The notes below the pieces were generated by a model that was given only the letters and a program-made list of their open reading frames with translations, had not been told where the DNA came from and searched no databases. Positions 2,232 to 10,932 of a stretch of DNA of 10,932 nt are shown in pieces. This DNA is from a virus (lineage: Duplodnaviria > Heunggongvirae > Uroviricota > Caudoviricetes): the IMG/VR virus record IMGVR_UViG_3300020045_012956, positions 64,001 to 74,932 of that record. One strand, given 5' to 3'. Position 1 is the stretch's first letter; each line of letters begins with the position of its first letter. A program made the position numbers and the translations under genes.

Positions 2232-2235
2232 ACTA

Positions 2236-2261
2236 ACAGAGGGACATTAACGCCCCTCTGT
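2236..2261 (-). terminator. Intrinsic terminator hairpin T1 between convergent genes
   Basis: ACAGAGGG (2236-2243) / CCCTCTGT (2254-2261). On the minus strand the stem extends to 10 bp through G.U and C-G pairs and is followed by UAGUUU. On the + strand that position is an A.C mismatch and there is no U-tract. Confidence 0.7.
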
Positions 2262-2271
2262 GAAATAATAA

Positions 2272-2511
2272 CTAAAATAATTTATGACATTTTTCTTTTA
2301 GAATCTTTTTTGGAACTTCAAACTCATACTTTCCATTTTCTAATTGATTCCAAACTTTTTCAAAGTTATCAAAACATTCTAAAAAGTTTTCTAGTGATAT
2401 TTTACCAAAACGTTTATTGAATGTTTTATTTTTTGGGTTGTAGTCTGCATAAATCATAAAATTATCATTCTCACAACTACCATTATCTAATGAAATTAAT
2501 TCTATTCTCAT
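2272..2511 (-). CDS. Hypothetical phage protein (79 aa), probable early gene
   Basis: ATG start 5 nt after the stop of the upstream minus-strand gene; ends just before hairpin T1. No recognised motif. Confidence 0.65.
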   Translation of the reverse strand: MRIELISLDNGSCENDNFMIYADYNPKNKTFNKRFGKISLENFLECFDNFEKVWNQLENGKYEFEVPKKILKEKCHKLF

Positions 2512-2516
2512 GATTT

Positions 2517-2915
2517 TTATTCAAAAATCTCAATCAACTCATTTAATTTAAGATAAACTTGAAACATTCCATAACTGTAATTATCATTATAAATATAATT
2601 CCATAGTTTTTCTCTATACTTTTCAGGAACTATTTCAATATTTGAGTGTTTTTTAATAAAAATTTCAATTAAGTTTTCAATATATTGGTATCTTTCTTTC
2701 CAATTTTCCAACTCTTTATTATATTTATCTAATTTCTCATTATAAGAACCAAAATCATTAGCATATTCTAGAATTTCAATATGATTATGATTTTCTTTTA
2801 ATTTGGGTTCAATTGGTTTTTGAGGCTTTTCGTTTTGTAATTTTTCAAGTTCTTTTAATGTTTCATAAACTGAAAGATTCCAGTTTTCTACAATTTCTAA
2901 TGTTAACTTTTCCAT
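2517..2915 (-). CDS. Hypothetical phage protein (132 aa, helical, E/K-rich), probable early gene
   Basis: ATG with A-rich leader 26 nt downstream of a TAATTTTG -7 box. KPQKPIEPKL linker followed by a helical segment. No function recognised. Confidence 0.7.
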   Translation of the reverse strand: MEKLTLEIVENWNLSVYETLKELEKLQNEKPQKPIEPKLKENHNHIEILEYANDFGSYNEKLDKYNKELENWKERYQYIENLIEIFIKKHSNIEIVPEKYREKLWNYIYNDNYSYGMFQVYLKLNELIEIFE

Positions 2916-2941
2916 TTTATTTTCTTTTTAATTTCTTGTTA

Positions 2942-2975
2942 CAAAATTACATCTTTTAGTAATACGATTTACAAA
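2942..2975 (-). promoter_or_regulatory. Leftward Bacteroidota-type promoter, cassette C1
   Basis: Minus strand TTTG (2975-2972), 22 nt, TAATTTTG (2949-2942). Matches the TTTG / TAnnTTTG consensus, slightly longer than the usual 19-21 nt spacing. Confidence 0.7.
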
Positions 2976-3038
2976 AATTGTAAAATAAATTTACAAAACT
3001 TGTTTAACTATCTGAAAATCAATGATAATAATTTTTAT
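2942..3038. repeat. Dispersed regulatory cassette, copy C1 (-7 box, TTTAGTAATAC, two TTTACAA-N3-TTGTAAA-like palindromes)
   Basis: Aligns without gaps to 8180-8276 (79/97 identical by hand count). Palindromes at 2968-2984 and 2990-3006. Confidence 0.9.
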
Positions 3039-3059
3039 AAAATACTCGAAAATATTTTT

Positions 3060-3092
3060 TTTGTTTATCTAAATTATTTTTTACTATATTTG
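3060..3092 (+). promoter_or_regulatory. Rightward Bacteroidota-type promoter, cassette C1
   Basis: TTTG (3060-3063), 21 nt, TATATTTG (3085-3092); ATG 4 nt later. Confidence 0.7.
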
Positions 3093-3096
3093 CATC

Positions 3097-4062
3097 ATGT
3101 TAATTAATTGCTTAAAAAATATACTTGGATTCAAAGGATGCGGTAATAATTCATTTCAACTTGATTTGAATCAATTACACGGCTTTAATATTGAATCAGC
3201 ATCAAAAATAACACCTAAAGATCAAACAGCCGTTGAATTCATTAACAAACAAATTGAATACGCTATAACTCAATCTAATAATGATTTTTTAGGTAAAGTT
3301 CAAAATAACTTTATTGTTTCTCAATTCAATGAGTTTATACCTTACGGTTTATTTTCAGACTATCAAAATAATGCAATTGCACAAAATAGAGGGTTAAGCA
3401 TTCGCAAAGATGCTGCATACATTCAAAAAATATACATTCCAACTATCAAAATAAAAGTTAACAATAACATTACAACTAATATTTTAATTGTAGATGGATT
3501 TGAAACAACCCCCGTTTTAGTTACCCTAGTCGCAAATGTAGAAAATGAAATAACAATTAATTACACTGCAAAAACTGATAGTTTATTTATTCTAATTGAA
3601 GACACTTTTGGACAAATCAACTCATACACTGGAGATTTACCAAGTATAAACGGTTGTAAGTCTTGCGGTGGAAATAAGGGTTACAAAATAAATGATTGTA
3701 ATTTAACCGTTAAAGGGTGGAATGGAGTAACAGAAGACTCTAAAATATACGGTATTGAGGCCGTTATTACAACGGTTTGCAACTATGATAATATTTACTG
3801 TTTACTTGCAAATCAAACTAATCTAAAATATGTTTATTTATATAAGTTTGGAATTCTATTTTTCAAAGAATATTTAACAAGTGACAGATTAAACGAACAT
3901 ACAATTTATAACAAAGATAAATGTTTGTATTTAATTGAAAATTACGAAGTTGAATATCAAAAACAATGGGACATTTTCAACGAATCACTAAAAAACTTTC
4001 TCAATAAAATTAGTGATAATTGTTTGATATGTAGAGGCTTAAAATATGGTTATTCTTTATAA
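3097..4062 (+). CDS. Putative virion structural protein (possible head-tail adaptor), Cys-containing
   Basis: 321 aa. N-terminal CL-x3-LG-x-x-GC...LNxLxG pattern reminiscent of Bacteroidota phage structural proteins; CKSC and CLIC motifs. The adaptor call is contextual. Confidence 0.4.
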   Translation: MLINCLKNILGFKGCGNNSFQLDLNQLHGFNIESASKITPKDQTAVEFINKQIEYAITQSNNDFLGKVQNNFIVSQFNEFIPYGLFSDYQNNAIAQNRGLSIRKDAAYIQKIYIPTIKIKVNNNITTNILIVDGFETTPVLVTLVANVENEITINYTAKTDSLFILIEDTFGQINSYTGDLPSINGCKSCGGNKGYKINDCNLTVKGWNGVTEDSKIYGIEAVITTVCNYDNIYCLLANQTNLKYVYLYKFGILFFKEYLTSDRLNEHTIYNKDKCLYLIENYEVEYQKQWDIFNESLKNFLNKISDNCLICRGLKYGYSL

Positions 4063-4070
4063 TTAAAAAT

Positions 4071-4196
4071 ATGGCAAAAAATGTAATAAAACCGATGGTT
4101 TTCATTCAAAAACCAAAAGTAACACAACCATCACAAAAAATAAATACAACTCCAAAAACTGGAGGTTGTTCAACTTGTAATAAGAATAGAAAATGA
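4071..4196 (+). CDS. Small basic protein (41 aa) with C-terminal CxxC; absent from the ORF track
   Basis: MAKNVIKPMVFIQKPKVTQPSQKINTTPKTGGCSTCNKNRK*. Fills the gap exactly: starts 8 nt after the upstream stop with an A-rich leader, and its TGA overlaps the endolysin ATG (ATGA, 4193-4196). Confidence 0.7.
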   Translation: MAKNVIKPMVFIQKPKVTQPSQKINTTPKTGGCSTCNKNRK

Positions 4197-5083
4197 TACC
4201 CATTCAAAAAGGTGCAATAGGACCTAAAGTTTTAGAAATACAACTAGCATTAAAAAAGTCAGGTATCAATATTGATGCTGATTCTCAATTTGGTAATGAT
4301 ACCGAAAAGGCTGTTATTCAATTTCAGGAATTAAATAATTTAGAAGTCGATGGAATTGTAGGAGAACAAACCTATAATTTATTAGTTTTAGGTAAAAGAA
4401 TAGAAGTAAAAAAAGGTTCTTTGAATTGCGTTGACTTGGTTTATCATACAAATGATTATTACAAATCAATCAATAATAAGAATCAAATTTGTTTACACCA
4501 TACAGCAGGGCCCGCAAGTGCTAAAAATACCATTGATTGGTGGTTAACTGATATTAATTCAACGGGCACAGCCTTTGTTATAGGGGGTAAAGATGGTAAA
4601 AAGGACGGGGAAATAGTTGAGGCGCACCCTTCCGAAAATTGGCAATGGCATTTAGGAGTAGACCCTAAATTTTCAAATGGATTCTCAAATAGAGATAAAA
4701 ACGGGGTTATTTTAGATTCAAAATGTATTGGAATTGAAATTTGTAATTGGGGTTACTTGAATAAGTCAGGTAATAACTTTTTTAGTTATGCTGGTACAAT
4801 AGTAAATTCAAATGATGTTTGCGACTTAGGCAAAAAAATAAGAGGTAAACAATATTTTCAAAAATATACAGATAATCAAATTAATTCAACAAAAAAACTA
4901 TTGCTAGAATTAGCAGAAAAACACTCAATTGAATTGCATAAAACTTATGATTGGAGTTGGTTTGAGTTATCAAATGATGCTTTAAGTGGTAAAAGTGGGG
5001 TTTGGAATCATTGTAATTTTAGAAGTGATAAAATTGATATTTACCCACAACAAGAAATGTTAGATATGTTAAACAGTTTATAA
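4193..5083 (+). CDS. Endolysin: N-terminal peptidoglycan-binding domain (PG_binding_1) plus N-acetylmuramoyl-L-alanine amidase (Amidase_2)
   Basis: KGAIGPKVLEIQLAL...DADSQFGNDTEKAVIQFQ...LEVDGIVGEQT (PG-binding). ICLHHTAG, WQWHLG, IGIEICNWG, YTDNQI, HCNFRSDKIDIYPQ (Zn-amidase motifs). Confidence 0.9.
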   Translation: MIPIQKGAIGPKVLEIQLALKKSGINIDADSQFGNDTEKAVIQFQELNNLEVDGIVGEQTYNLLVLGKRIEVKKGSLNCVDLVYHTNDYYKSINNKNQICLHHTAGPASAKNTIDWWLTDINSTGTAFVIGGKDGKKDGEIVEAHPSENWQWHLGVDPKFSNGFSNRDKNGVILDSKCIGIEICNWGYLNKSGNNFFSYAGTIVNSNDVCDLGKKIRGKQYFQKYTDNQINSTKKLLLELAEKHSIELHKTYDWSWFELSNDALSGKSGVWNHCNFRSDKIDIYPQQEMLDMLNSL

Positions 5084-5094
5084 TAATAAAAAAA

Positions 5095-5394
5095 ATGAAA
5101 AAAGTAGATTATACACAAGCCATTGAGGCTCTTTTGAATAGTAAAATAGTTAAACGTTCAATACATCCAGAAGGAACGTTTATTTTTAGACAAGTTCCAA
5201 GTGAAATATCTAGTGATATTATTCCAAAAATGCAATCTTTGCCTCAATCTGTTAAAGATGAGTTTGCAAAAAGAGAATCTAAAAGTATAAAATATGATAA
5301 TCAATTTGCGATTGTTGATATTGATAATAATATACAAGGTTGGAAACCAGAACCGCAAGATTTTCTTGCAAAAGATTGGATAATTATTGAATAA
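5095..5394 (+). CDS. DUF2829 / Thoeris anti-defence 2 (Tad2)-like protein
   Basis: 99 aa. N-terminal QAIEALLNSKIVKR, central FIF...QSLPQSVK insertion, C-terminal GWKPEPQDFLAKDW, matching the family's ALEALK-G-KV-R ... GW-x-(P/A)S-x-x-D-x-LA-x-DW pattern (recalled). Confidence 0.8.
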   Translation: MKKVDYTQAIEALLNSKIVKRSIHPEGTFIFRQVPSEISSDIIPKMQSLPQSVKDEFAKRESKSIKYDNQFAIVDIDNNIQGWKPEPQDFLAKDWIIIE

Positions 5395-5404
5395 ATTTAT
5401 AAAA

Positions 5405-5623
5405 ATGGCAAAGTTAGTAAAATTAAAACACTTGAAAAGTGGTAGAATTACAGAATTTGAAGAACAATTTTGTATTAACCTTTTGAATCAAACAAAGGGA
5501 CAATTACCACAATATGAAATAGTTAAGGAAGTTGAAAAGGTAGTTGAAAAAACTATTGAACCTGAAAAGCCAAAAAAGGCTGAAAAAAAAGAAGCAATTG
5601 AACCAGAAATTAAAATTGATTAA
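5405..5623 (+). CDS. Hypothetical protein (72 aa) with K/E-rich disordered tail
   Basis: Start moved from the track's TTG at 5387 (which overlaps the upstream gene) to the in-frame ATG at 5405 preceded by ATAAAA. Confidence 0.65.
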   Translation: MAKLVKLKHLKSGRITEFEEQFCINLLNQTKGQLPQYEIVKEVEKVVEKTIEPEKPKKAEKKEAIEPEIKID

Positions 5624-5635
5624 TAAATAAATAAC

Positions 5636-6535
5636 ATGAGTAAAAAAGCAAAAGAAGTATTATTTAACTTAGGATTTGATGATGCAACTATTAATGCTAT
5701 TATGTCAGACGATCCTAATGCAGATTCTGGCAATTTAGCGCAAGTGTTTTTAGGTGGACAGTTTGAACTTTTCAAAAATCATAAAGACTACGGTGGAAAG
5801 ATCAAAAATGAAACTAGAAAAGAAGTTCAAGAAAAAAACAAGAAATCTTTAATTAAAGAATTTGGATTGAATGTTGAGGACGAAGGCAAAGAATGGCCTG
5901 AATTATTATTAGAAAGTAAAAAGGCTTATGAAAAGTCAGTGAGTGAGAAGTATGCTAATTTAACAGATACTGAAGCGAAGGTTGAGTTAAAAAACATGAA
6001 AATTCAATATGCAAAGTTAGAAGATGAAATTAAGCAATTGAAAGAGGTTGAAATACCTTTGCAAAAACAAACAGCAGAAAATCACATTAAACAAGAAAAA
6101 TTTAAGGAAAAACTTAAAAAACATTTGCTTAAAGGTGTTGAATTTGGTGCAATGTCTAACGAAGCTTTTGAAGAAAAGTATTTTGATTTGTATTATAGAA
6201 CATTAAATGAAAAATATGATGTTCTACAATCAAAAGATGGGGAATTTGAATTATGGGATAAAAGTGGAGATGGTAAAGTTTATGATGGTGCAAAACCAGT
6301 AACTCCAAAGATGGCATTTTTGAAAGAATTGGAGGCGGATAAACTATTAAAACAAGGTGTTTCAAACGACCCTAAAAACCCACCTGTAAGCACACCAACG
6401 CAAACGACTCAAACGAATAAACAAACGGTTGTAGTTGAAAATAACAAACCTAGCAACATGTTAGCACCACAAGGGGAAAAGAATGCTATGTATGCACAAA
6501 TAGAGGCTGCTAAGGCGTTGAAAAATAAAAAGTAA
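5636..6535 (+). CDS. Putative capsid scaffolding / assembly protein
   Basis: 299 aa, highly charged, with a long predicted coiled coil (EAKVELKNMKIQYAKLEDEIKQLKE), a P/T/Q-rich disordered tail and a terminal basic helix. This is the typical scaffold layout, but the call is inference. Confidence 0.5.
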   Translation: MSKKAKEVLFNLGFDDATINAIMSDDPNADSGNLAQVFLGGQFELFKNHKDYGGKIKNETRKEVQEKNKKSLIKEFGLNVEDEGKEWPELLLESKKAYEKSVSEKYANLTDTEAKVELKNMKIQYAKLEDEIKQLKEVEIPLQKQTAENHIKQEKFKEKLKKHLLKGVEFGAMSNEAFEEKYFDLYYRTLNEKYDVLQSKDGEFELWDKSGDGKVYDGAKPVTPKMAFLKELEADKLLKQGVSNDPKNPPVSTPTQTTQTNKQTVVVENNKPSNMLAPQGEKNAMYAQIEAAKALKNKK

Positions 6536-6558
6536 CTTAGTATTGTCATAAAATTTTT

Positions 6559-6598
6559 AAGCCGTTAGAATTGATTCTAACGGCTTTTATTTTTTTTA
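6559..6598 (+). terminator. Intrinsic terminator T2
   Basis: AAGCCGTTAGAA-TTGA-TTCTAACGGCTT, a 12-bp perfect stem followed by TTATTTTTTTT. Lies between convergent genes. Confidence 0.9.
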
Positions 6599-7435
6599 AT
6601 ATTTTGGTTTTGGTGGATTATTTTCTCTTTGTTTATCTGCTATTTCTTGCATTTTTATTTTTAAGTCGGGATTTCTTTTTAAATATCCTTGAATAGCATG
6701 TTGTGTACAATCATAATGTTTTGCAATAGATATTATACTAAATTCCTTTTTATAAATTGAAAGTATAACTTTATCTTCAAACATAATATCTAAATTCAAG
6801 TTTTTCTCTTTCTTTTTAGGTTTTACAACTTTTTCAACCATATTATTATCAATACAATATTTTGAAATTGTTAATCTGTTTATTTTCAAAAGTCTACCAA
6901 TTGCAGAGTATGAAAGTTTTTTATTTAGAAATGATTGTATTTTTGCTTTTAATGGATCACATTTAGTACTCTTAGACTTATTACCTAAAGGTCTACCCAA
7001 AACAACACCATCTGATTTTCTTTTCGCTAAGCCCTCTTTAGTTCTTTTTGAAATCATATCTCTTTCAATTTCAGCGGCTAATCCAAATGCAAAAGCCATT
7101 ACTTTACTTTGAATATTATTACCTAATTCGTAACCATCCTTAACTGTATAAACTTGACATTCATGCTTCATACAGTGTTCTAGAATTCGCATAACCATAA
7201 ATAAAGAGCGTCCAAGCCTTGAAATTTCAGAAGCAATAATAACATCTTTAGGTTTTATTTTCTTTAGCAATTTACCTAGTTGTCTTTCTTCAGGTTCTTT
7301 TGTTCCTGAAATACCATCATCAGAAATCCAAGTGTTAATTTCTAATCCTAAAGAAGTAGCTTTTTCAATGATTCCTATCTTTTGTCCCTCTACTTCTTGC
7401 TTATCTGTTGAAACTCTTATATAACCGTAAACCAT
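6596..7435 (-). CDS. Small serine recombinase (resolvase/invertase), Mpi-like, with extended C-terminus carrying two putative HTH motifs
   Basis: YGYIRVST (catalytic Ser9), GISG, EISRLGRS, IQSKVMAFAFGLAAEIERDMISKRTKEGL, GVVLGRP. Closely resembles the recalled Bacteroides Mpi sequence over about aa 1-154. HTH-like segments at about aa 164-194 and 222-254. Confidence 0.92.
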   Translation of the reverse strand: MVYGYIRVSTDKQEVEGQKIGIIEKATSLGLEINTWISDDGISGTKEPEERQLGKLLKKIKPKDVIIASEISRLGRSLFMVMRILEHCMKHECQVYTVKDGYELGNNIQSKVMAFAFGLAAEIERDMISKRTKEGLAKRKSDGVVLGRPLGNKSKSTKCDPLKAKIQSFLNKKLSYSAIGRLLKINRLTISKYCIDNNMVEKVVKPKKKEKNLNLDIMFEDKVILSIYKKEFSIISIAKHYDCTQHAIQGYLKRNPDLKIKMQEIADKQRENNPPKPKY

Positions 7436-7438
7436 TTT

Positions 7439-7774
7439 TTAACTATTAAAATAAGCTTGTCTAATACATTTTAATTCATAAAGCAATAGAAATAATTTAT
7501 TTTTAATTATATCATCTCTAGTCTCTATTAATTTTACAAGTTTATCGTTTCTAATATCTATTAGTTTGAATCCATCTGTAAAATCTCCATCATTACAATA
7601 TAACTTATTAAATTCTAAAGGTCTATAAAATAAGCAATTAGACCATTTATTAAATTTAAAATTAGCTATATCAAAAATATCTATTTCATTAAAAAAACTT
7701 TTATCTTTTTTTATAATAGTTAATGATGGATTTTGTCTATCAAAATTAACTATTGTATATGTTTTATTTTTCAT
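7439..7774 (-). CDS. Hypothetical protein (111 aa)
   Basis: ATG overlaps the upstream stop (TAATG); its stop is 3 nt before the recombinase ATG, giving a compact operon. Confidence 0.65.
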   Translation of the reverse strand: MKNKTYTIVNFDRQNPSLTIIKKDKSFFNEIDIFDIANFKFNKWSNCLFYRPLEFNKLYCNDGDFTDGFKLIDIRNDKLVKLIETRDDIIKNKLFLLLYELKCIRQAYFNS

Positions 7775-8136
7775 TACTTAACTATTTTGTATTGTGAATT
7801 TCCTAAGTCTCTAAAATCTTTTAATTCCTTTTTGTTAATGTTATTTGCACAATAAATTTGATCTTTTTGGTTTGATTCAAAATATAAAATATTTGCATTG
7901 AATTTTGAAATTAAAGAATCTTTTGTAACTAATTTTCTTTCAATTAATATTTCAAAAGCTTCAATTGTAGTTACATATTCAAATTTACCAATTGTAAATT
8001 TAACTAATTGATGAACTTTATTTTTACCATTTGAGAATAAAGCATTGTATTTCTTTTCCATGCTTTTTTCAATTTGTGCAAATTCATTTTTGCTTACTTT
8101 GTTGTTTGATGCGAACATTGTTAAATCTAATTTCAT
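7774..8136 (-). CDS. Hypothetical protein (120 aa), first gene of the recombinase operon
   Basis: ATG with A-rich leader 43 nt downstream of TATATTTG. No motif recognised. Confidence 0.7.
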   Translation of the reverse strand: MKLDLTMFASNNKVSKNEFAQIEKSMEKKYNALFSNGKNKVHQLVKFTIGKFEYVTTIEAFEILIERKLVTKDSLISKFNANILYFESNQKDQIYCANNINKKELKDFRDLGNSQYKIVK

Positions 8137-8148
8137 TTTCTTATTTCT

Positions 8149-8276
8149 TTAAGTCTTAGCTACATTGCTTTTGACATCACAAATATAGTGGGTTTAGTAA
8201 TACGATTTACAAAACTTGTAAAATATTTTTACAAGTTTTGTGTAACTTGTTGAAAATCAATGAGAATAATTTTTAT
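8149..8276. repeat. Dispersed regulatory cassette, copy C2
   Basis: 8149-8247 aligns without gaps to 9171-9269 (84/99 by hand count, including a 31-bp perfect match 8210-8240 / 9232-9262). Contains the inverted repeat ACAAAACTTGTAAAA-TAT-TTTTACAAGTTTTGT (8209-8241). Confidence 0.95.
8180..8213 (-). promoter_or_regulatory. Leftward promoter, cassette C2 (drives the recombinase operon)
   Basis: Minus strand TTTG (8213-8210), 22 nt, TATATTTG (8187-8180). Confidence 0.75.
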
Positions 8277-8300
8277 TTTTCTTTTATCAAATATTTTAAC

Positions 8301-8308
8301 TACCTTTG
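8301..8308 (+). promoter_or_regulatory. Rightward -7 box, cassette C2
   Basis: TACCTTTG with ATG 4 nt later. No canonical TTTG at -33; CTTTTATCAAA upstream is shared with C3. Confidence 0.6.
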
Positions 8309-8312
8309 TATT

Positions 8313-8813
8313 ATGAATTCGAAAACAGCATTAAAAGAAATAAACCAAGCTATTAAATTAAAGTTTCCTGAAGTTGAAAGACCTTTAGAACTTGAATTTG
8401 AGAAAGATATTTTAGTTTCAATTGATTCTAAAGAAAAATCAGTAAGTTTTGATGTTTTAACTTATTCTATGTATACTAGATATTTAGATGAGATTAGATT
8501 CATTGAAAAACCTAAATTTACTTCAAATCAATCTATTTTCTTAGCAAGTGCAAAGATTAGAACGGTTTTAATTGGTAAAAATAAAGATATTTATCAATTA
8601 GGGCATAAGTTAGTACAAATGCTTAATAACATAAAAATAAACAACATAACAGCTATTAAGCTAAAAGAAGTTAAAACAATGCATGATGTTTTGATTAAAG
8701 AAGAGTTTGTATTAAAAGAAAATGATTTATTTAAGGACGCAAAAACTGGTATAGGTGCAATTGATTATGAAATAGAATTTTATTTTGATTGTAATGATGA
8801 AAATTGTATTTGA
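8313..8813 (+). CDS. Putative tail terminator / completion-type protein (166 aa)
   Basis: Start moved from the track's TTG at 8238 (inside the cassette palindrome) to the ATG at 8313 after the -7 box. Size, alpha/beta pattern and terminal AIDYEIEF strand fit gpU/gp17-like folds; weak inference. Confidence 0.4.
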   Translation: MNSKTALKEINQAIKLKFPEVERPLELEFEKDILVSIDSKEKSVSFDVLTYSMYTRYLDEIRFIEKPKFTSNQSIFLASAKIRTVLIGKNKDIYQLGHKLVQMLNNIKINNITAIKLKEVKTMHDVLIKEEFVLKENDLFKDAKTGIGAIDYEIEFYFDCNDENCI

Positions 8814-8850
8814 AAAAAGCCGTTAGGATTTATTCTAACGGCTTTTATTA
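8813..8850. terminator. Bidirectional intrinsic terminator T3, near-identical to T2
   Basis: AAAAGCCGTTAG...CTAACGGCTTTT (8815-8846), with a T-tract on the + side and an A6 tract on the other. 31/33 nt identical to 6559-6591. Confidence 0.9.
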
Positions 8851-8851
8851 T

Positions 8852-9160
8852 TTATATTTTCTTTAACCAATAATGTTTGGTTTTTTCTTTAATAAAATCT
8901 CCATGATCTATTGATTTTTCACCAATATAAATTAAAGAATTTGCATCTTTCTTTTTGCAAATTTCATAACCTATTGATTTAATATAGTCTTTTTCTAATC
9001 CAGTAACGCAATTAGATTTTTCCCAAGCCCAAGTAAATTGAGATTCTTGTAAATCATTGCATAATTCAACTGATAGTATTTTAGCACCATTTGACTTATT
9101 ACGAATGCAATTAAGTGTAGTTTCTTTAACATCTGAATGAAATTGTTCTAATCGAGTCAT
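8852..9160 (-). CDS. Hypothetical protein (102 aa), probable early gene
   Basis: The track's GTG start at 9202 overlaps the -7 box, so the in-frame ATG at 9160 (MTRLEQF...) is preferred. Confidence 0.65.
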   Translation of the reverse strand: MTRLEQFHSDVKETTLNCIRNKSNGAKILSVELCNDLQESQFTWAWEKSNCVTGLEKDYIKSIGYEICKKKDANSLIYIGEKSIDHGDFIKEKTKHYWLKKI

Positions 9161-9170
9161 AAAAAAAATA

Positions 9171-9299
9171 TTAAGTCTTAGCCTTGTTGCTTTTGACATC
9201 ACAAAGATAAATGATTTAGTAATACAAAACGCAAAACTTGTAAAATATTTTTACAAGTTTTGCGTAACTAATTGATTATTAGTTAAATAATTTTTAATT
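9171..9299. repeat. Dispersed regulatory cassette, copy C3
   Basis: Offset 1022 bp from C2. Inverted repeat ACGCAAAACTTGTAAAA-TAT-TTTTACAAGTTTTGCGT (9229-9265). Confidence 0.95.
9202..9235 (-). promoter_or_regulatory. Leftward promoter, cassette C3
   Basis: Minus strand TTTG (9235-9232), 22 nt, TATCTTTG (9209-9202). Confidence 0.75.
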
Positions 9300-9320
9300 T
9301 TCTTTTATCAAATAAAACAT

Positions 9321-9328
9321 TAACTTTG
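9321..9328 (+). promoter_or_regulatory. Rightward -7 box, cassette C3
   Basis: TAACTTTG, 10 nt upstream of the ATG at 9339. Confidence 0.6.
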
Positions 9329-9338
9329 CAAAAAAAAC

Positions 9339-9949: not shown

Positions 9950-10932
9950 ATGGCAACATGCGAATTATGTAATTGTTTTGATTTGGGGTGTTCTCCAAAT
10001 TGTTGCAATTTTGAATTTATACTCAATGATACCCCCGTTTTAGCAACTCAAGACGGTTTACATATTTTATCTTACATTCAAGAGGGTCAAGACAATAAAA
10101 ACGGTGGATTACAGTTTTTAATTGGTGACCCTATTGTTTTTCCTGCAAGTTGGTTTAATTCTCAAGGTTTAGTTAAATTTCAATTAACTTTGCCGGATGG
10201 TGAAATTTTCACTTATCAAACTTACACATGTTTTGAGTTTGAAAGAATCATTTCAACAACACCCGAAACAAGCGAAAGTATTCAATGTTTAGGTTCAAAT
10301 AATCCAAATGACATTTGTACAGTTTGCGACCTTTTGGCAGCTTTAGGAGTAAGTTCACAATTATTAGTAGAAATACGCAATAATACTTTATTTCTTGATA
10401 CTCCACTTTCTCAATTAGGGAAAGAAGCGACTTTACAAGACATTTTAACTGCTATTAATGGTAGTGGTGGTAATTATGCCCTAGAATCTACTTTGCAGCT
10501 TGTTTTAACGGCTTTGAGTGGAATTGCATTAGATAGTACTTTGCAAAGTATTTTAACTGCTTTAGGTACAGGATTAGCACAAGAAACAACATTACAAACA
10601 GTTGCAAAAGAAACCTCTTTGCAGGCTGTTATAACGGCTTTAAGTGGATTGAGTACAGAAACTACATTAGGTAGTGTTTTAACTCAATTACAAAACTTAA
10701 ATTTAGTTGACTTTAGTACAGAAACAACCTTACAAGCTTTATTATTAGCTATTCAAAATTTGCCCGCTGGTGGGGACGCTACGGCCGCAAATCAAGTACT
10801 TGAAATTGCAGAACTAACAACACTAAACGCAAAGGATTTTAGTACAGAAACAACTTTACAAAGCGTTTTAGCAGCCTTATTACTTTCAGGGCAAGAATTA
10901 ACCCTACAAAGCATTTTAACTGCTTTAGTACC
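9950..10932 (+). CDS. 3'-truncated repeat-rich, putative fibre / coiled-coil virion protein with Cys-rich N-terminus; absent from the ORF track
   Basis: Open from ATG 9950 to the window end (327 codons, no stop): MATCELCNCFDLGCSPNCC..., then nine E-T-T-L-Q-x-(I/V)-L-T-A-L-type repeats from 10421, plus GDATAANQ. Confidence 0.75.
   Translation, partial: MATCELCNCFDLGCSPNCCNFEFILNDTPVLATQDGLHILSYIQEGQDNKNGGLQFLIGDPIVFPASWFNSQGLVKFQLTLPDGEIFTYQTYTCFEFERIISTTPETSESIQCLGSNNPNDICTVCDLLAALGVSSQLLVEIRNNTLFLDTPLSQLGKEATLQDILTAINGSGGNYALESTLQLVLTALSGIALDSTLQSILTALGTGLAQETTLQTVAKETSLQAVITALSGLSTETTLGSVLTQLQNLNLVDFSTETTLQALLLAIQNLPAGGDATAANQVLEIAELTTLNAKDFSTETTLQSVLAALLLSGQELTLQSILTALV

Follow-up and report, generated by a model that had tools for sequence, protein, structure and literature searches.

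A two-way promoter cassette of ~150-200 bp, with a symmetric DNA motif mid-way, recurs across the genome of a freshwater phage. It forms a repeat family of fixed geometry and fixed position relative to the promoter elements, its motif is restricted to promoters of accessory genes, and it has persisted while those genes were exchanged between strains. Our best single guess is that the motif (hereafter the dyad) is an operator for a putative regulator. This reading is tentative, and we put its probability at about 0.4.

The window, that is, the whole stretch of 10,932 nucleotides analysed here, is the terminal 10.9 kb of a complete 74.9-kb phage contig, siphovirus-like and of 27% GC. The source phage is uncultured, lives in freshwater and has host bacteria of Bacteroidota type; no lysogeny module was seen in it. 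Among 50,697 phage records none matched the window by megablast, an Rfam scan of the window gave no family, and searches for relatives with the 321-aa, 166-aa and 603-aa proteins returned none. Related strains were reached solely through protein look-ups, which yielded close relatives at 95% and 81% nucleotide identity and more distant ones at 42% and 35% protein identity. Three sequencing runs containing phage DNA were listed, with small shares (0.06-0.17), and no RNA runs were listed.

A divergent promoter cassette and its genome-wide family

A repeat search of the window returned a single family of 136 nt, present in three copies at 68-79% identity, and a MAFFT alignment of these copies, C1 to C3, spanned ~200 nt (Table 1). 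A preliminary description of this DNA had reported a thrice-repeated divergent-promoter cassette with tandem 17-bp palindromes. Its sequence layout, coordinates and divergent arrangement were confirmed in all three copies, as were the 22 bp, centre to centre, between the two sites and the overlap of site 1 with the leftward -33 TTTG. The count of three was right for the window but not for the genome, in which we found seven cassettes with four half-sites and one decayed eighth copy, in both orientations. Likewise, the palindromes held for site 1, which is a perfect 7-3-7 in C1 and C2, but not for site 2, which is never perfect (at most 5/7). Within the 111-aa gene, 27 nt (7529-7555) repeat part of site 2, which was taken as chance.

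Table 1. Cassettes, dyads, cargo slots and terminators of the window (position 1 is its first letter)
Feature	Position	Strand	Remarks
Cassette C1	2911..3096		between 132-aa minus-strand gene and 321-aa plus-strand gene; repeat search, alignment
C1 leftward -7 box	2942..2949	-	TAATTTTG on minus strand; TAnnTTTG consensus PMC6847099
C1 promoter-spacer block	2955..2965		TTTAGTAATAC; conserved; common to at least 15 promoters of the genome
C1 dyad element	2968..3006		four alternating half-sites; site 1 2968-2984, site 2 2990-3006
C1 rightward -7 box	3085..3092	+	TATATTTG; 4 nt 5' of ATG at 3097
Cassette C2	8149..8312		repeat search, alignment
C2 leftward -7 box	8180..8187	-	TATATTTG on minus strand
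C2 spacer block	8193-8203		
C2 dyad element	8206..8244		site 1 8206-8222, site 2 8228-8244
C2 leftward -33 TTTG	8210-8213		
C2 rightward -7 box	8301..8308	+	TACCTTTG; 4 nt 5' of ATG at 8313
Cassette C3	9171..9338		repeat search, alignment
C3 leftward -7 box	9202-9209		
C3 spacer block	9215-9225		
C3 dyad element	9228..9266		site 1 9228-9244, site 2 9250-9266
C3 rightward -7 box	9321..9328	+	TAACTTTG
Slot A cargo, 132-aa and 79-aa genes	2272..2915	-	no family match; C1 leftward promoter
Slot B cargo, 120-aa gene, 111-aa gene and 279-aa recombinase	6596..8136	-	C2 leftward promoter
Mpi-family serine recombinase, 279 aa	6596-7435	-	third gene of slot B operon
Slot C cargo, 102-aa gene	8852..9160	-	C3 leftward promoter
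Terminator hairpin, left end of slot A	2236..2261	-	GC-rich
Terminator hairpin, left end of slot B	6559..6586	+	AAGCCGTTAG...CTAACGGCTT family
Terminator hairpin, left end of slot C	8815..8846	+	AAGCCGTTAG...CTAACGGCTT family, as slot B

The consensus of the -7 box in Bacteroidota promoters is TAnnTTTG, with G at -5 (PMC6847099). The leftward promoter of the cassettes takes the form TTTG, 22 nt including GTATTACWAAA, then TAnnTTTG. On the other strand, the C1 rightward transcript probably starts leaderless, and the C3 rightward -7 box was kept in a relative that lacks 8812 to ~9321 (joint 8811->9330). The leftward promoter of the preliminary description is real, but its membership in a stereotyped, genome-wide family had been missed. 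At least 15 promoters have in common the -33/-7 elements, the spacer block and an A/T tract, AAAAATAWTTT, which stands at the same place in all family promoters, dyad or no dyad. All seven dyads occupy an identical position relative to the promoter; at least seven further promoters share the -7 box, N5, the GTAATAC block and the -33 TTTG, but lack the dyad. Promoters bearing it lead into small cargo genes of no assigned family, and those devoid of it into a tRNA cluster, ERF/ThyX, helicase and tail genes.

TAHHTTTG was enriched 2.5-fold and lay upstream of 32 of the 123 ORFs, and this enrichment and placement indicated that host-sigma promoters are in use. Promoters of the N4 type, with hairpins and a phage RNA polymerase, were dropped, since no such polymerase was seen among the large proteins and the -33/-7 elements fit host sigma. 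When checked by eye, a mirrored rightward promoter and an IHF consensus were both misfits.

Symmetry, conservation and possible roles of the dyad

The strongest symmetry was found not in the two 17-bp palindromes but in the inner pair TTGTAAA-N5-TTTACAA (mean 6.2/7), which the outer arms lengthen to a perfect palindrome of 33-37 bp in only three of seven copies. In C2, positions 8209-8241 form a perfect 15+15 bp palindrome around TAT (DNA hairpin -13.2 kcal/mol, z -7.7); in C3, 9229-9265 form a perfect one of 17+17 bp (-17.7 kcal/mol, z -8.4). The outer arms read ACGCAA/TTGCGT in C3 versus TTACAA/TTGTGT in C2, and in C1 the long hairpin is interrupted. The axis falls on a single base, with TAT or the 5-nt ATAAA/ATATT as centre, and the 17-bp sites have 3-nt centres. 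Across the relatives the dyad variant is TTGTAAA-N5-TTTACAA, TAACGTAAA-T-TTTACGTTA, or none.

A genome-wide search for TTTACAA-N3-TTGTAAA, which the preliminary description had suggested, gave two exact 7-3-7 matches against 0.02 expected, and three against 0.46 when at most one mismatch was allowed. The inner dyad occurred four times exactly and twice with one mismatch, and 6/6 of these occurrences were inside cassettes. Outside this genome, the dyad was scanned for with exact IUPAC patterns that either included or omitted the GTAATAC block; IMG/VR and JGI metagenome contigs gave no match, which tells against an operator. A lone dyad match in a Clostridia MAG (scan of GTDB genomes) was isolated and taken as chance, and the 76 single-match IMG/VR loci for a looser promoter pattern were treated likewise, none being cassette-like by nhmmer (best 17 bits). 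A literature search on the two half-site words returned primer noise only.

The confinement of the inner dyad to cassettes, and the small cargo of no known family driven by dyad-bearing promoters, both argue for an operator. In such a scheme, the host-sigma promoter would fire leftward into small strain-variable accessory genes, and the second -7 box of the cassette would restart the plus-strand genes. Between the two lies the array of four alternating half-sites with ACAA/TTGT cores, centred ~48 bp upstream of the leftward start, with the -33 element itself as its outer left arm. A dimer-of-dimers DNA-binding protein, phage- or host-encoded, may bind the two 17-bp sites along the same face of the helix and thereby occlude the -33 element. 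The accessory-gene promoters would then be switched off as a group, and the dyad-less promoters of the family (tRNAs, replication, structural genes) would stay unregulated. The operator had been proposed from the start; it stands as the most likely single reading, and its geometry was confirmed, but no binding protein was found: neither the ~75 ORFs scanned nor the cargo genes included a cognate regulator, winged-helix matches elsewhere being sub-threshold only. Small DNA-binding candidates, from sub-threshold matches elsewhere in the genome, include a Crp-like winged helix of 96 aa (44257-44547) and a protein with DnaA domain IV (47252-47704); a T5orf172/winged-helix protein (28642-29271) is a further candidate binder.

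Conservation had been offered as the signature of protein binding, with spacers varying and half-sites kept. Among C1-C3 this is true of the inner half-sites: columns varied at 6/11 positions in the spacers, 6/28 in the half-sites and 0/14 in the two inner half-sites. It was only modest in a wider set of 12 copies drawn from three lineages, where half-sites carried 1.07-1.52 bits per position, spacers 0.78-0.98 and cassette flanks 1.0-1.4, i.e., half-site conservation was modestly above that of the spacers and not above that of the flanks. Because half-sites are no better kept than flanks, shared descent and gene conversion could explain their conservation.

A possibility, which we hold to be rather unlikely, is that the dyad has no dedicated function. 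It would be a near-palindromic, A/T-rich, UP-like tract between the back-to-back -33-like TTTTGT elements of a divergent pair, its palindromes sharpened by inter-cassette gene conversion and template-switch repair, and the cassette would matter as a strong promoter and as homology for recombination. As a matter of fact, the AAAAATAWTTT tract is present with or without the dyad, the left outer arm simply is the -33 element, and a dyad centre at ~-48, the usual place of an A/T-rich UP-like element, speaks against an operator. A relative, L094, has the same architecture with no dyad at all. Moreover, two otherwise 95%-identical strains differed by ~13 changes packed within 50 columns over the dyad, in pieces matching other cassettes, a dense patch that points to inter-cassette conversion, and the phage encodes an ERF single-strand annealing protein. 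Yet no rightward -7 box lies at the mirror spacing, the best being TTTG-N26-TAATTTTT (C2), and the symmetric G and C of TTGTAAA/TTTACAA, needless for an A/T tract, are the best-kept bases.

The G/C-bearing blocks CAA, TGTAAA, TTTACA and TTG were kept in 10-12 of the 12 copies, over three lineages, and persisted even where the centre triplets are non-complementary and the long hairpin is broken; the ACAA/TTGT cores retained at least 3/4 positions in every copy. Between orthologous C1 copies the centre triplet was inverted (AAC versus GTT) with the half-sites unchanged. Since the G/C blocks were kept despite a broken hairpin, base-specific contacts with the half-sites fit better than a mere hairpin. 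The outer arms co-varied weakly (own 6.7 versus cross 5.9 of 10, p ~0.04, with non-independent rows), which favours a structural or mutational cause. In the distant relatives at 42% and 35% protein identity the dyad motif was not kept, being lost or replaced, which again speaks against an operator.

The dyad could also be a promoter-associated stem-loop resembling the PeSLs of T4-type phages, whose RNA hairpin would attenuate or terminate read-through before the promoter and so insulate the cargo, the sequence being kept only since the cassettes are copies of one another. RNA hairpins directed toward the leftward promoter reached -20.4 kcal/mol in C3, -20.0 in the copy on contig L092, -16.7 in the copy at genome 42934 (K42934) and -14.9 in C2, strengths that match the real terminators of this phage (-13 to -18 kcal/mol). 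A U-run from the -33 region follows the dyad in C3, the L092 copy, K42934 and K26008, and is absent after most copies. In a terminator scan the C3 dyad came out as a minus-strand, terminator-like element. At genome 42934 no hairpin other than the dyad separates the promoter from the co-directional genes upstream of it, and in L098, a distant relative, another perfect palindrome with T6 behind it occupies the equivalent place. We nevertheless find a stem-loop role somewhat improbable. The hairpin was weak or broken in 8/12 copies (-3.7 to -10.6 kcal/mol), including all three of the 81% lineage, and in the inner arms the sequence itself is invariant, with no co-variation. The four plus-oriented cassettes have no co-directional upstream gene needing termination, and the phage elsewhere uses GC-rich terminators, one of which already stands just upstream of two minus-oriented copies.

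Cargo exchange and the slot B recombinase

The preliminary description had recognized the repeated unit, but had missed that it flanks swappable cargo. Slots A, B and C each held different cargo in each of three lineages, with the cassettes and flanking genes kept, and cargo has moved between slots. Slot A contained unrelated genes in relatives, slot B a 101-aa or a 256-aa gene instead of the recombinase operon in the cassette-keeping strains L083 and L090, and slot C was empty in one sequencing run. Judged from these sequences, the Mpi-family recombinase operon is itself replaceable cargo. ESM Atlas look-ups with the 120-aa and 111-aa cargo proteins gave no usable match. Anti-defence-type genes (Tad2-like, Acb2/Tad1-like) were also gained or lost among relatives in this region, as plus-strand insertions.

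One 1207-bp contig, L092, has an exact 127-bp terminal overlap inside a cassette and closes into a 1080-bp cycle; it represents either a circle or two identical cassettes in a linear genome. Contig joints touching cassettes were rejected as evidence of rearrangement, their sides being 21-26 nt and cross-matching between cassette copies. No inversion (strand-changing) joint was seen at the cassettes, in related-strain contigs present at low share only.

It is doubtful, though conceivable, that the cassette-plus-terminator pairs form a gene-cassette exchange system of Bacteroidota phages, analogous to T4 PeSLs or integron cassettes. The dyad would then be the place at which cassettes preferably pair or cross over. 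Exchange between neighbours would set free circles of ~1 kb, of which the 1080-bp L092 cycle would be an example, and on these circles accessory genes would travel from slot to slot and from phage to phage. Through the same dyad, a single regulator could silence any incoming cargo. Incidentally, the cargo here consists of small genes without known family and an Mpi-like invertase.

The preliminary description had also considered a res-like site, and pointed to the recombinase transcribed from C2 as the only evident DNA-binding protein. In the window, no other protein is clearly DNA-binding. We nevertheless consider it very unlikely that the dyad is a res-, hix- or Mpi-type site for this enzyme, through which it would regulate promoters and recombine cassettes. 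The recombinase has two HTH-like segments, and a monomer with two of them would match a 33-37 bp dyad that offers two sub-sites in each half; it scored 268.6 bits against NF009949 (cutoff 272), in the Mpi family. This family, in work by Coyne and colleagues in 2003, is said to act in trans on many promoter regions. The invertase of B. fragilis is called finA in one paper, without use of the name Mpi. The movement of cargo between slots would also agree with a recombinase at work. However, at least seven copies in both orientations are spread over a 75-kb genome full of essential genes, which would end up scrambled if every one of these sites underwent resolution or inversion.

The layout of the sites does not fit either. 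A Tn3-family res has three subsites, each an inverted pair of resolvase half-sites, at spacings of ~28, 34 and 25 bp over ~115 bp; the cassette has only two 17-bp sites (one 33-37 bp dyad) and no third related inverted pair. There is one res per element, adjoining the resolvase gene, whereas the recombinase here is the third gene of its operon, ending ~770 bp from C2, with 7-8 cassettes per genome. The res crossover subsite is of even length and symmetric about a central 2-bp overlap, and the axis of the dyad is on one base. Sites of hix/gix and Mpi/FinA type are inverted pairs flanking an invertible segment, typically a promoter segment of 170-230 bp for Mpi; the dyad arms are 3-5 bp apart, which leaves no segment for inversion, and apart from palindromes and terminators matching each other, a cassette is flanked by no further inverted repeat of at least 11 nt. 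The Mpi-type core ARACGTWCGT was absent from the window, and a literature search for an Mpi repeat consensus found nothing. The exchange patches resemble short homologous conversion tracts and not one fixed crossover point. Finally, L083 and L090 keep the cassettes with other genes in the recombinase slot, and no such motif occurs within 10 kb of the 65%-identical recombinases that other phages encode. Since the cassettes outlast the recombinase operon and homologous recombinases lack the motif, the res-like site was left unsupported.

Whatever the role of the dyad, promoter-bounded modular shuffling, so far described for T4-type phages, also exists in a phage group that is unrelated to these and follows another promoter grammar. 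Here it moves small genes of no known family and a master-invertase-like recombinase between fixed slots of the late-gene region. Minus-strand islands bounded by a terminator and a cassette can be annotated as accessory cargo, and the cassette may be of use for promoter parts in Flavobacteriia. If the operator reading is true, the dyad marks out a small regulon, its members being hypervariable accessory genes of an uncultured Bacteroidota phage from freshwater, and a 39-bp probe with clear half-sites provides a handle on the regulator.

Comparison with known systems

With Tn3/gamma-delta res and the Hin/Gin/Mpi systems, the cassette shares a recombinase gene transcribed from the region and inverted repeats within ~100 bp between divergent promoters. 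It differs from them in copy number, subsite layout, symmetry type, linkage to the recombinase and conservation where the recombinase is missing.

Operators of phage repressors are nearer in geometry. Those of lambda type are dyad-symmetric sites of 14-19 bp, and lambda OR1/OR2 and the ACAA-N6-TTGT sites of 434 are tandem operators at divergent promoters, spaced by 23-24 bp in lambda. The cassette likewise has ~17-bp dyad sites that stand between divergent promoters and overlap a core promoter element; they are 22 bp, or some two turns, from each other, share one helical face and have ACAA/TTGT cores that recall 434. In contrast, there are two sites rather than three, the within-site spacing is ACAA-N3-TTGT, no repressor gene was adjacent or found (lambda-type operators control the promoters from which their own repressor or Cro gene is transcribed), no lysogeny module was seen, and seven dispersed copies replace one immunity region. 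The P1 C1 operators and the stoperators of mycobacteriophage L5 gp71 are asymmetric sites of 13-17 bp with a known repressor, in temperate phages. As with these, a short motif stands at many intergenic places, where one protein could control many units; here, however, the motif is a dyad of four half-sites that belongs to a single promoter family, and its binder is putative.

By analogy, the closest known system is the PeSL (promoter-early stem-loop), a mobile promoter/stem-loop cassette described in T4-type phages (Arbiol et al. 2010, PMC2839356; Comeau et al. 2014, PMC4122927). The present cassette has a Bacteroidota -33/-7 promoter and is divergent, its partner boundary being a separate family of GC-rich terminators. 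The dyad is A/T-rich and sequence-conserved, whereas the PeSL has a polyG/polyC stem of variable position, and a strong hairpin forms in C2, C3, K42934 and the L092 copy, a weak or interrupted one in the other eight. The phage is a 75-kb siphovirus-like one and not a T4-like myovirus. Still, both are repeated intergenic cassettes with a host-sigma promoter, an AT-rich upstream region and a potential stem-loop (PMC2839356, PMC4122927), and both lie mostly before ORFan genes in variable regions. Both show cassette-bounded insertions, deletions and replacements between close relatives, and the self-closing L092 contig, with its overlap in a cassette, possibly recalls the mini-circles of PeSLs.

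Three promoter cassettes and their relatives in the genome

The three cassette copies claimed in the preliminary description (C1, C2 and C3) were recovered at identical coordinates. A repeat search of the window returned a single family of three copies (136 nt, 68-79% identity), and their MAFFT alignment covered ~200 nt, the whole interval between the start codons of the leftward and rightward genes. The left half of each cassette consists, in order, of a minus-strand -7 box, 5 nt, TTTAGTAATAC, 2 nt and a 17-bp palindromic site (site 1); the right half comprises 5 nt, a second 17-bp site (site 2), a conserved stretch with AATAATTTTTA at its end, and a plus-strand TAnnTTTG near the rightward ATG. 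As had been proposed, the sites were spaced by 22 bp and the leftward -33 TTTG lay inside site 1 in all three copies. It is spaced 22 nt from the -7 box. Variation also fell mostly in the spacers: 6 of 11 spacer columns varied, against 6 of 28 columns in the half-sites, the 7-nt arms of the two sites. The 14 columns of the inner half-sites were invariant. Thus, the descriptive part of that earlier finding holds.

C2 and C3 have in common a conserved stretch in their leftward 5' leaders, TGATGTCAAAAGCAA...GCTAAGACTTAA, which C1 lacks. In both C1 and C2, the rightward gene begins exactly 4 nt past the G of TAnnTTTG, a spacing found at five genes of the genome; given the G at -5, these two genes are predicted to produce leaderless mRNAs.

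The cassettes form a portable promoter family in which the dyad occupies a fixed promoter position and occurs only at accessory-gene promoters. A whole-genome search added four copies with all four half-sites and one decayed copy, while the leftward-type promoter was found without a dyad in at least seven further places (table). This promoter class is stereotyped, with an A/T tract, TTTTGTA, then GTATTACWAAA, 5-6 nt and TAnnTTTG. Its dyad-bearing members serve small genes without family match, a DUF3560 protein and the recombinase operon. Since no divergent gene is present at three of the dyad-bearing copies, the dyad is tied to the leftward-type promoter and not to divergence as such.

Cassettes, promoters, cargo and related genes (aa, protein length)
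Feature	Position	Details
C1, C2, C3	window 2911-3096, 8149-8312, 9171-9338	dyads 2968-3006, 8206-8244, 9228-9266
Four-half-site copies	genome 26008(-), 32851(+), 42934(-), 56655(-)	
Decayed copy	genome 36343(-)	
Leftward-type promoters, no dyad	genome 14086, 21099, 47219, 51080, 53109, 59261, 61717	targets: tRNA cluster, ERF/ThyX, helicase region, tail and structural genes
C2, C3 leftward leaders	window 8137-8179, 9161-9201	
C1, C2 rightward starts	window 3085-3099, 8301-8315	
Slot A cargo (behind C1)		window 132 + 79 aa; 95% lineage 116 aa (L083); 81% lineage 75 aa (L085)
Slot B cargo (behind C2)		window 120 + 111 + 279 aa; 95% lineage 101 aa (L083); 81% lineage 256 aa (L090)
Slot C cargo (behind C3)		window 102 aa; 95% lineage 120-aa gene (L092); 81% lineage 72 + 94 aa (L088)
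Slot B, C left-end terminators	window 6559-6586, 8815-8846	
Slot A terminator in a relative	L083:2333-2363	
Recombinase	window 6596-7435 (-)	279 aa, slot B
Tad2-like gene	window 5095-5394	Thoeris anti-defence
3'-open gene	window 10417-10924	genome end
Winged-helix protein, stand-alone	genome 44257-44547	96 aa; HTH_36 E = 4e-5, HTH_Crp_2 E = 8e-5, both under gathering score
Other candidate binders (domain scan)		150-aa DnaA-domain-IV protein; T5orf172/winged-helix protein; weak HTH_17 match
Annotated genes	genome	tape-measure protein, large terminase, SNF2-type helicase, ERF, ThyX, dCTP-deaminase-like enzyme, Tad2-like protein, amidase endolysin

Concerted evolution and exchange of cargo

Cassettes evolve in concert within a genome and border swappable cargo. 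No close relative was found in IMG/VR or the phage collection, and protein look-ups reached contigs of three lineages, at ~95% nucleotide identity (L083, L084, L092), at ~81% (L085-L091) and, more distantly, at 42% and 35% protein identity (L094-L098). In both close lineages, C1, C2 and C3 are retained together with the dyad. The copies of the 81% lineage follow a consensus of their own (ATAACAA AAA ATGTAAA TTATT TTTACAA ...), which shows that cassettes of one genome evolve in concert. In C1, the centre of site 2 reads AAC in the window and is flipped to GTT in L083, with identical half-sites. Between the window and L092, the flanks are ~95% identical, yet ~13 of 50 columns over the dyad differ, and the L092 patch is a mosaic of pieces matching C3 and the copy at genome 42934, which indicates short conversion tracts between cassettes. 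In the distant relatives, the divergent-promoter architecture persists but the motif does not: in L098 the same position holds a perfect 19-bp palindrome of different sequence followed by T6 (L098:520-560), and L094 has a 12-bp direct repeat 24 bp apart (L094:5480-5535), or nothing.

The minus-strand cargo behind the cassettes differed in every lineage, with the flanking plus-strand genes kept (window 2232-9338; L083, L085, L088, L090, L092). Slot C was empty in sequencing run X2, where a contig joins 8811 to 9330, and a 120-aa gene sits in slot B in the window and in slot C in L092. At the cargo edges, window homology restarts a few bases from the cargo start codon and, on the other side, in a common GC-rich terminator family. 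The left-end terminators of slots B and C belong to this one repeated family, AAGCCGTTAG...CTAACGGCTT, which also borders slot A in a relative; the slots thus hold modules with conserved sequence at both ends. L092 (JGI sample 3300051785) is a 1207-bp contig with an exact 127-bp terminal direct repeat inside the cassette, and its 1080-bp cycle carries the cassette, a 166-aa gene, the terminator and the 120-aa minus-strand gene. This overlap reflects either two identical cassettes in a linear genome (an assembly loop) or a free mini-circle of the type described for promoter-early stem-loops (PeSLs).

As for other genes, the Tad2-like gene of the window is missing in L083 and L084 of the 95% lineage; contigs of the 81% lineage have an Acb2/Tad1-hairpin gene in a different slot, and a Tad2-like gene is found again, after the endolysin, in the 42% relatives. 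The 3'-open gene contains tandem imperfect repeats of ~40-126 nt encoding a TLQxxLTA-like motif, a pattern typical of fibre or receptor-binding proteins, one of which it may encode.

Possible roles of the dyad

We aligned twelve dyads, of which this genome contributed seven and relatives five; across them, the blocks CAA, TGTAAA, TTTACA and TTG(T) are kept. The array may equally be seen as a pair of ACAA-N3-TTGT sites with 22-bp spacing or as a single nested dyad around an A/T pentamer. Over 7-nt half-sites, symmetry was by far the highest for the inner pair, TTGTAAA-N5-TTTACAA (mean 6.2/7; site 1, 4.7; site 2, 4.5 and perfect in no copy). Exact matches to this inner dyad numbered four and one-mismatch matches two, every one of them inside a cassette. 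The outer arms were variable (TA, TG, CG and TT variants) and matched their own partner at 6.7/10 against 5.9/10 for arms of other copies (permutation p ~0.04, with non-independent rows).

The most likely reading, at a probability of about 0.4, is that the dyad is a putative operator for a dimer-of-dimers regulator, which would cover the -33 element and so shut the dyad-bearing promoters off as a group. Half-sites carried 1.07-1.52 bits per position, their spacers 0.78-0.98 and the rest of the cassette 1.0-1.4; the contrast on which the preliminary description relied is therefore real but modest. We find it doubtful that the dyad is functionless, a by-product, sharpened by conversion, of an A/T upstream tract that separates two back-to-back -33-like elements. 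As to a regulator, Pfam, PHROG and NCBIfam scans of ~75 ORFs returned no CI/Cro-like protein. The stand-alone winged-helix protein, encoded outside the window just upstream of a replication-initiator-like gene, is the best candidate, and no evidence ties any of the four candidate binders to the dyad.

Folding bears on another reading, a PeSL-type stem-loop insulator. As RNA running toward the leftward promoter, four copies form folds as strong as the real terminators of the phage; several of these have a U-run behind them that comes from the -33 region. At genome 42934, no hairpin other than the dyad separates the promoter from the co-directional genes upstream. However, 8 of 12 copies fold weakly as RNA, most have no U-run, and the inner arms keep a constant sequence instead of co-varying; a general terminator role is thus not supported, and we regard the insulator as unlikely. 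As single-stranded DNA, only C2 (15 bp), C3 (17 bp) and the copy at 42934 (13 bp) form an uninterrupted hairpin (z -7.6 to -8.4), the remaining four genome copies being not clearly different from shuffles.

A site for the recombinase, in line with the res-like alternative proposed earlier, appears highly improbable. The protein has a resolvase catalytic domain, with Gin, gamma-delta and Tn3 enzymes as closest solved structures, scores 268.6 bits over residues 1-199 against the Mpi master-invertase model, just below the cutoff of 272, and bears an additional C-terminal HTH region of ~80 aa. Yet it is replaceable cargo, other genes occupying slot B in relatives, and its 285-aa homologues (65-66% identity) lie in other phages among replication genes, adjoining an HNH gene (HNH_3), and neither a cassette nor a dyad occurs within 10 kb of them. 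The symmetry of the dyad is odd, with arms just 3-5 bp apart, and, with seven copies lying in either orientation among essential genes, it is not possible that every one acts as a res or hix site. We found no other inverted repeat bracketing a cassette, and the Mpi-type core was absent from the window. Serine invertases of 280-300 aa with a C-terminal HTH extension form a widespread subfamily.

Host-type promoters and comparison with PeSLs

The contig (74,932 bp, 27% GC, 121-bp direct terminal repeats) is rated complete in IMG/VR, and the window covers its bases 64001-74932. No RNA polymerase was seen among its large proteins. TAHHTTTG counts on the two strands of the genome are 98 and 94, against ~38 expected, and 32 of 123 ORFs have the motif in the 60 nt upstream. 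This enrichment fits the Bacteroidota sigma-A consensus, TTTG/TAnnTTTG with G at -5 (PMC6847099), which makes the host a Bacteroidota-type bacterium and the promoters host-type. Sequencing runs with related DNA were labelled lake water, soil and wetland, with small shares of sampled words.

By analogy, the nearest match among described systems is the PeSL of T4-type phages, which combines a strong host-sigma promoter, an AT-rich upstream region and a stem-loop; PeSLs are repeated before ORFans, mediate modular shuffling and yield mini-circles (PMC2839356). In contrast to PeSLs, the cassette follows a Bacteroidota promoter grammar, has a divergent layout and relies on a separate terminator family for the other boundary of its modules, and its A/T-rich dyad, whose sequence is conserved, resembles a protein site more than a terminator.
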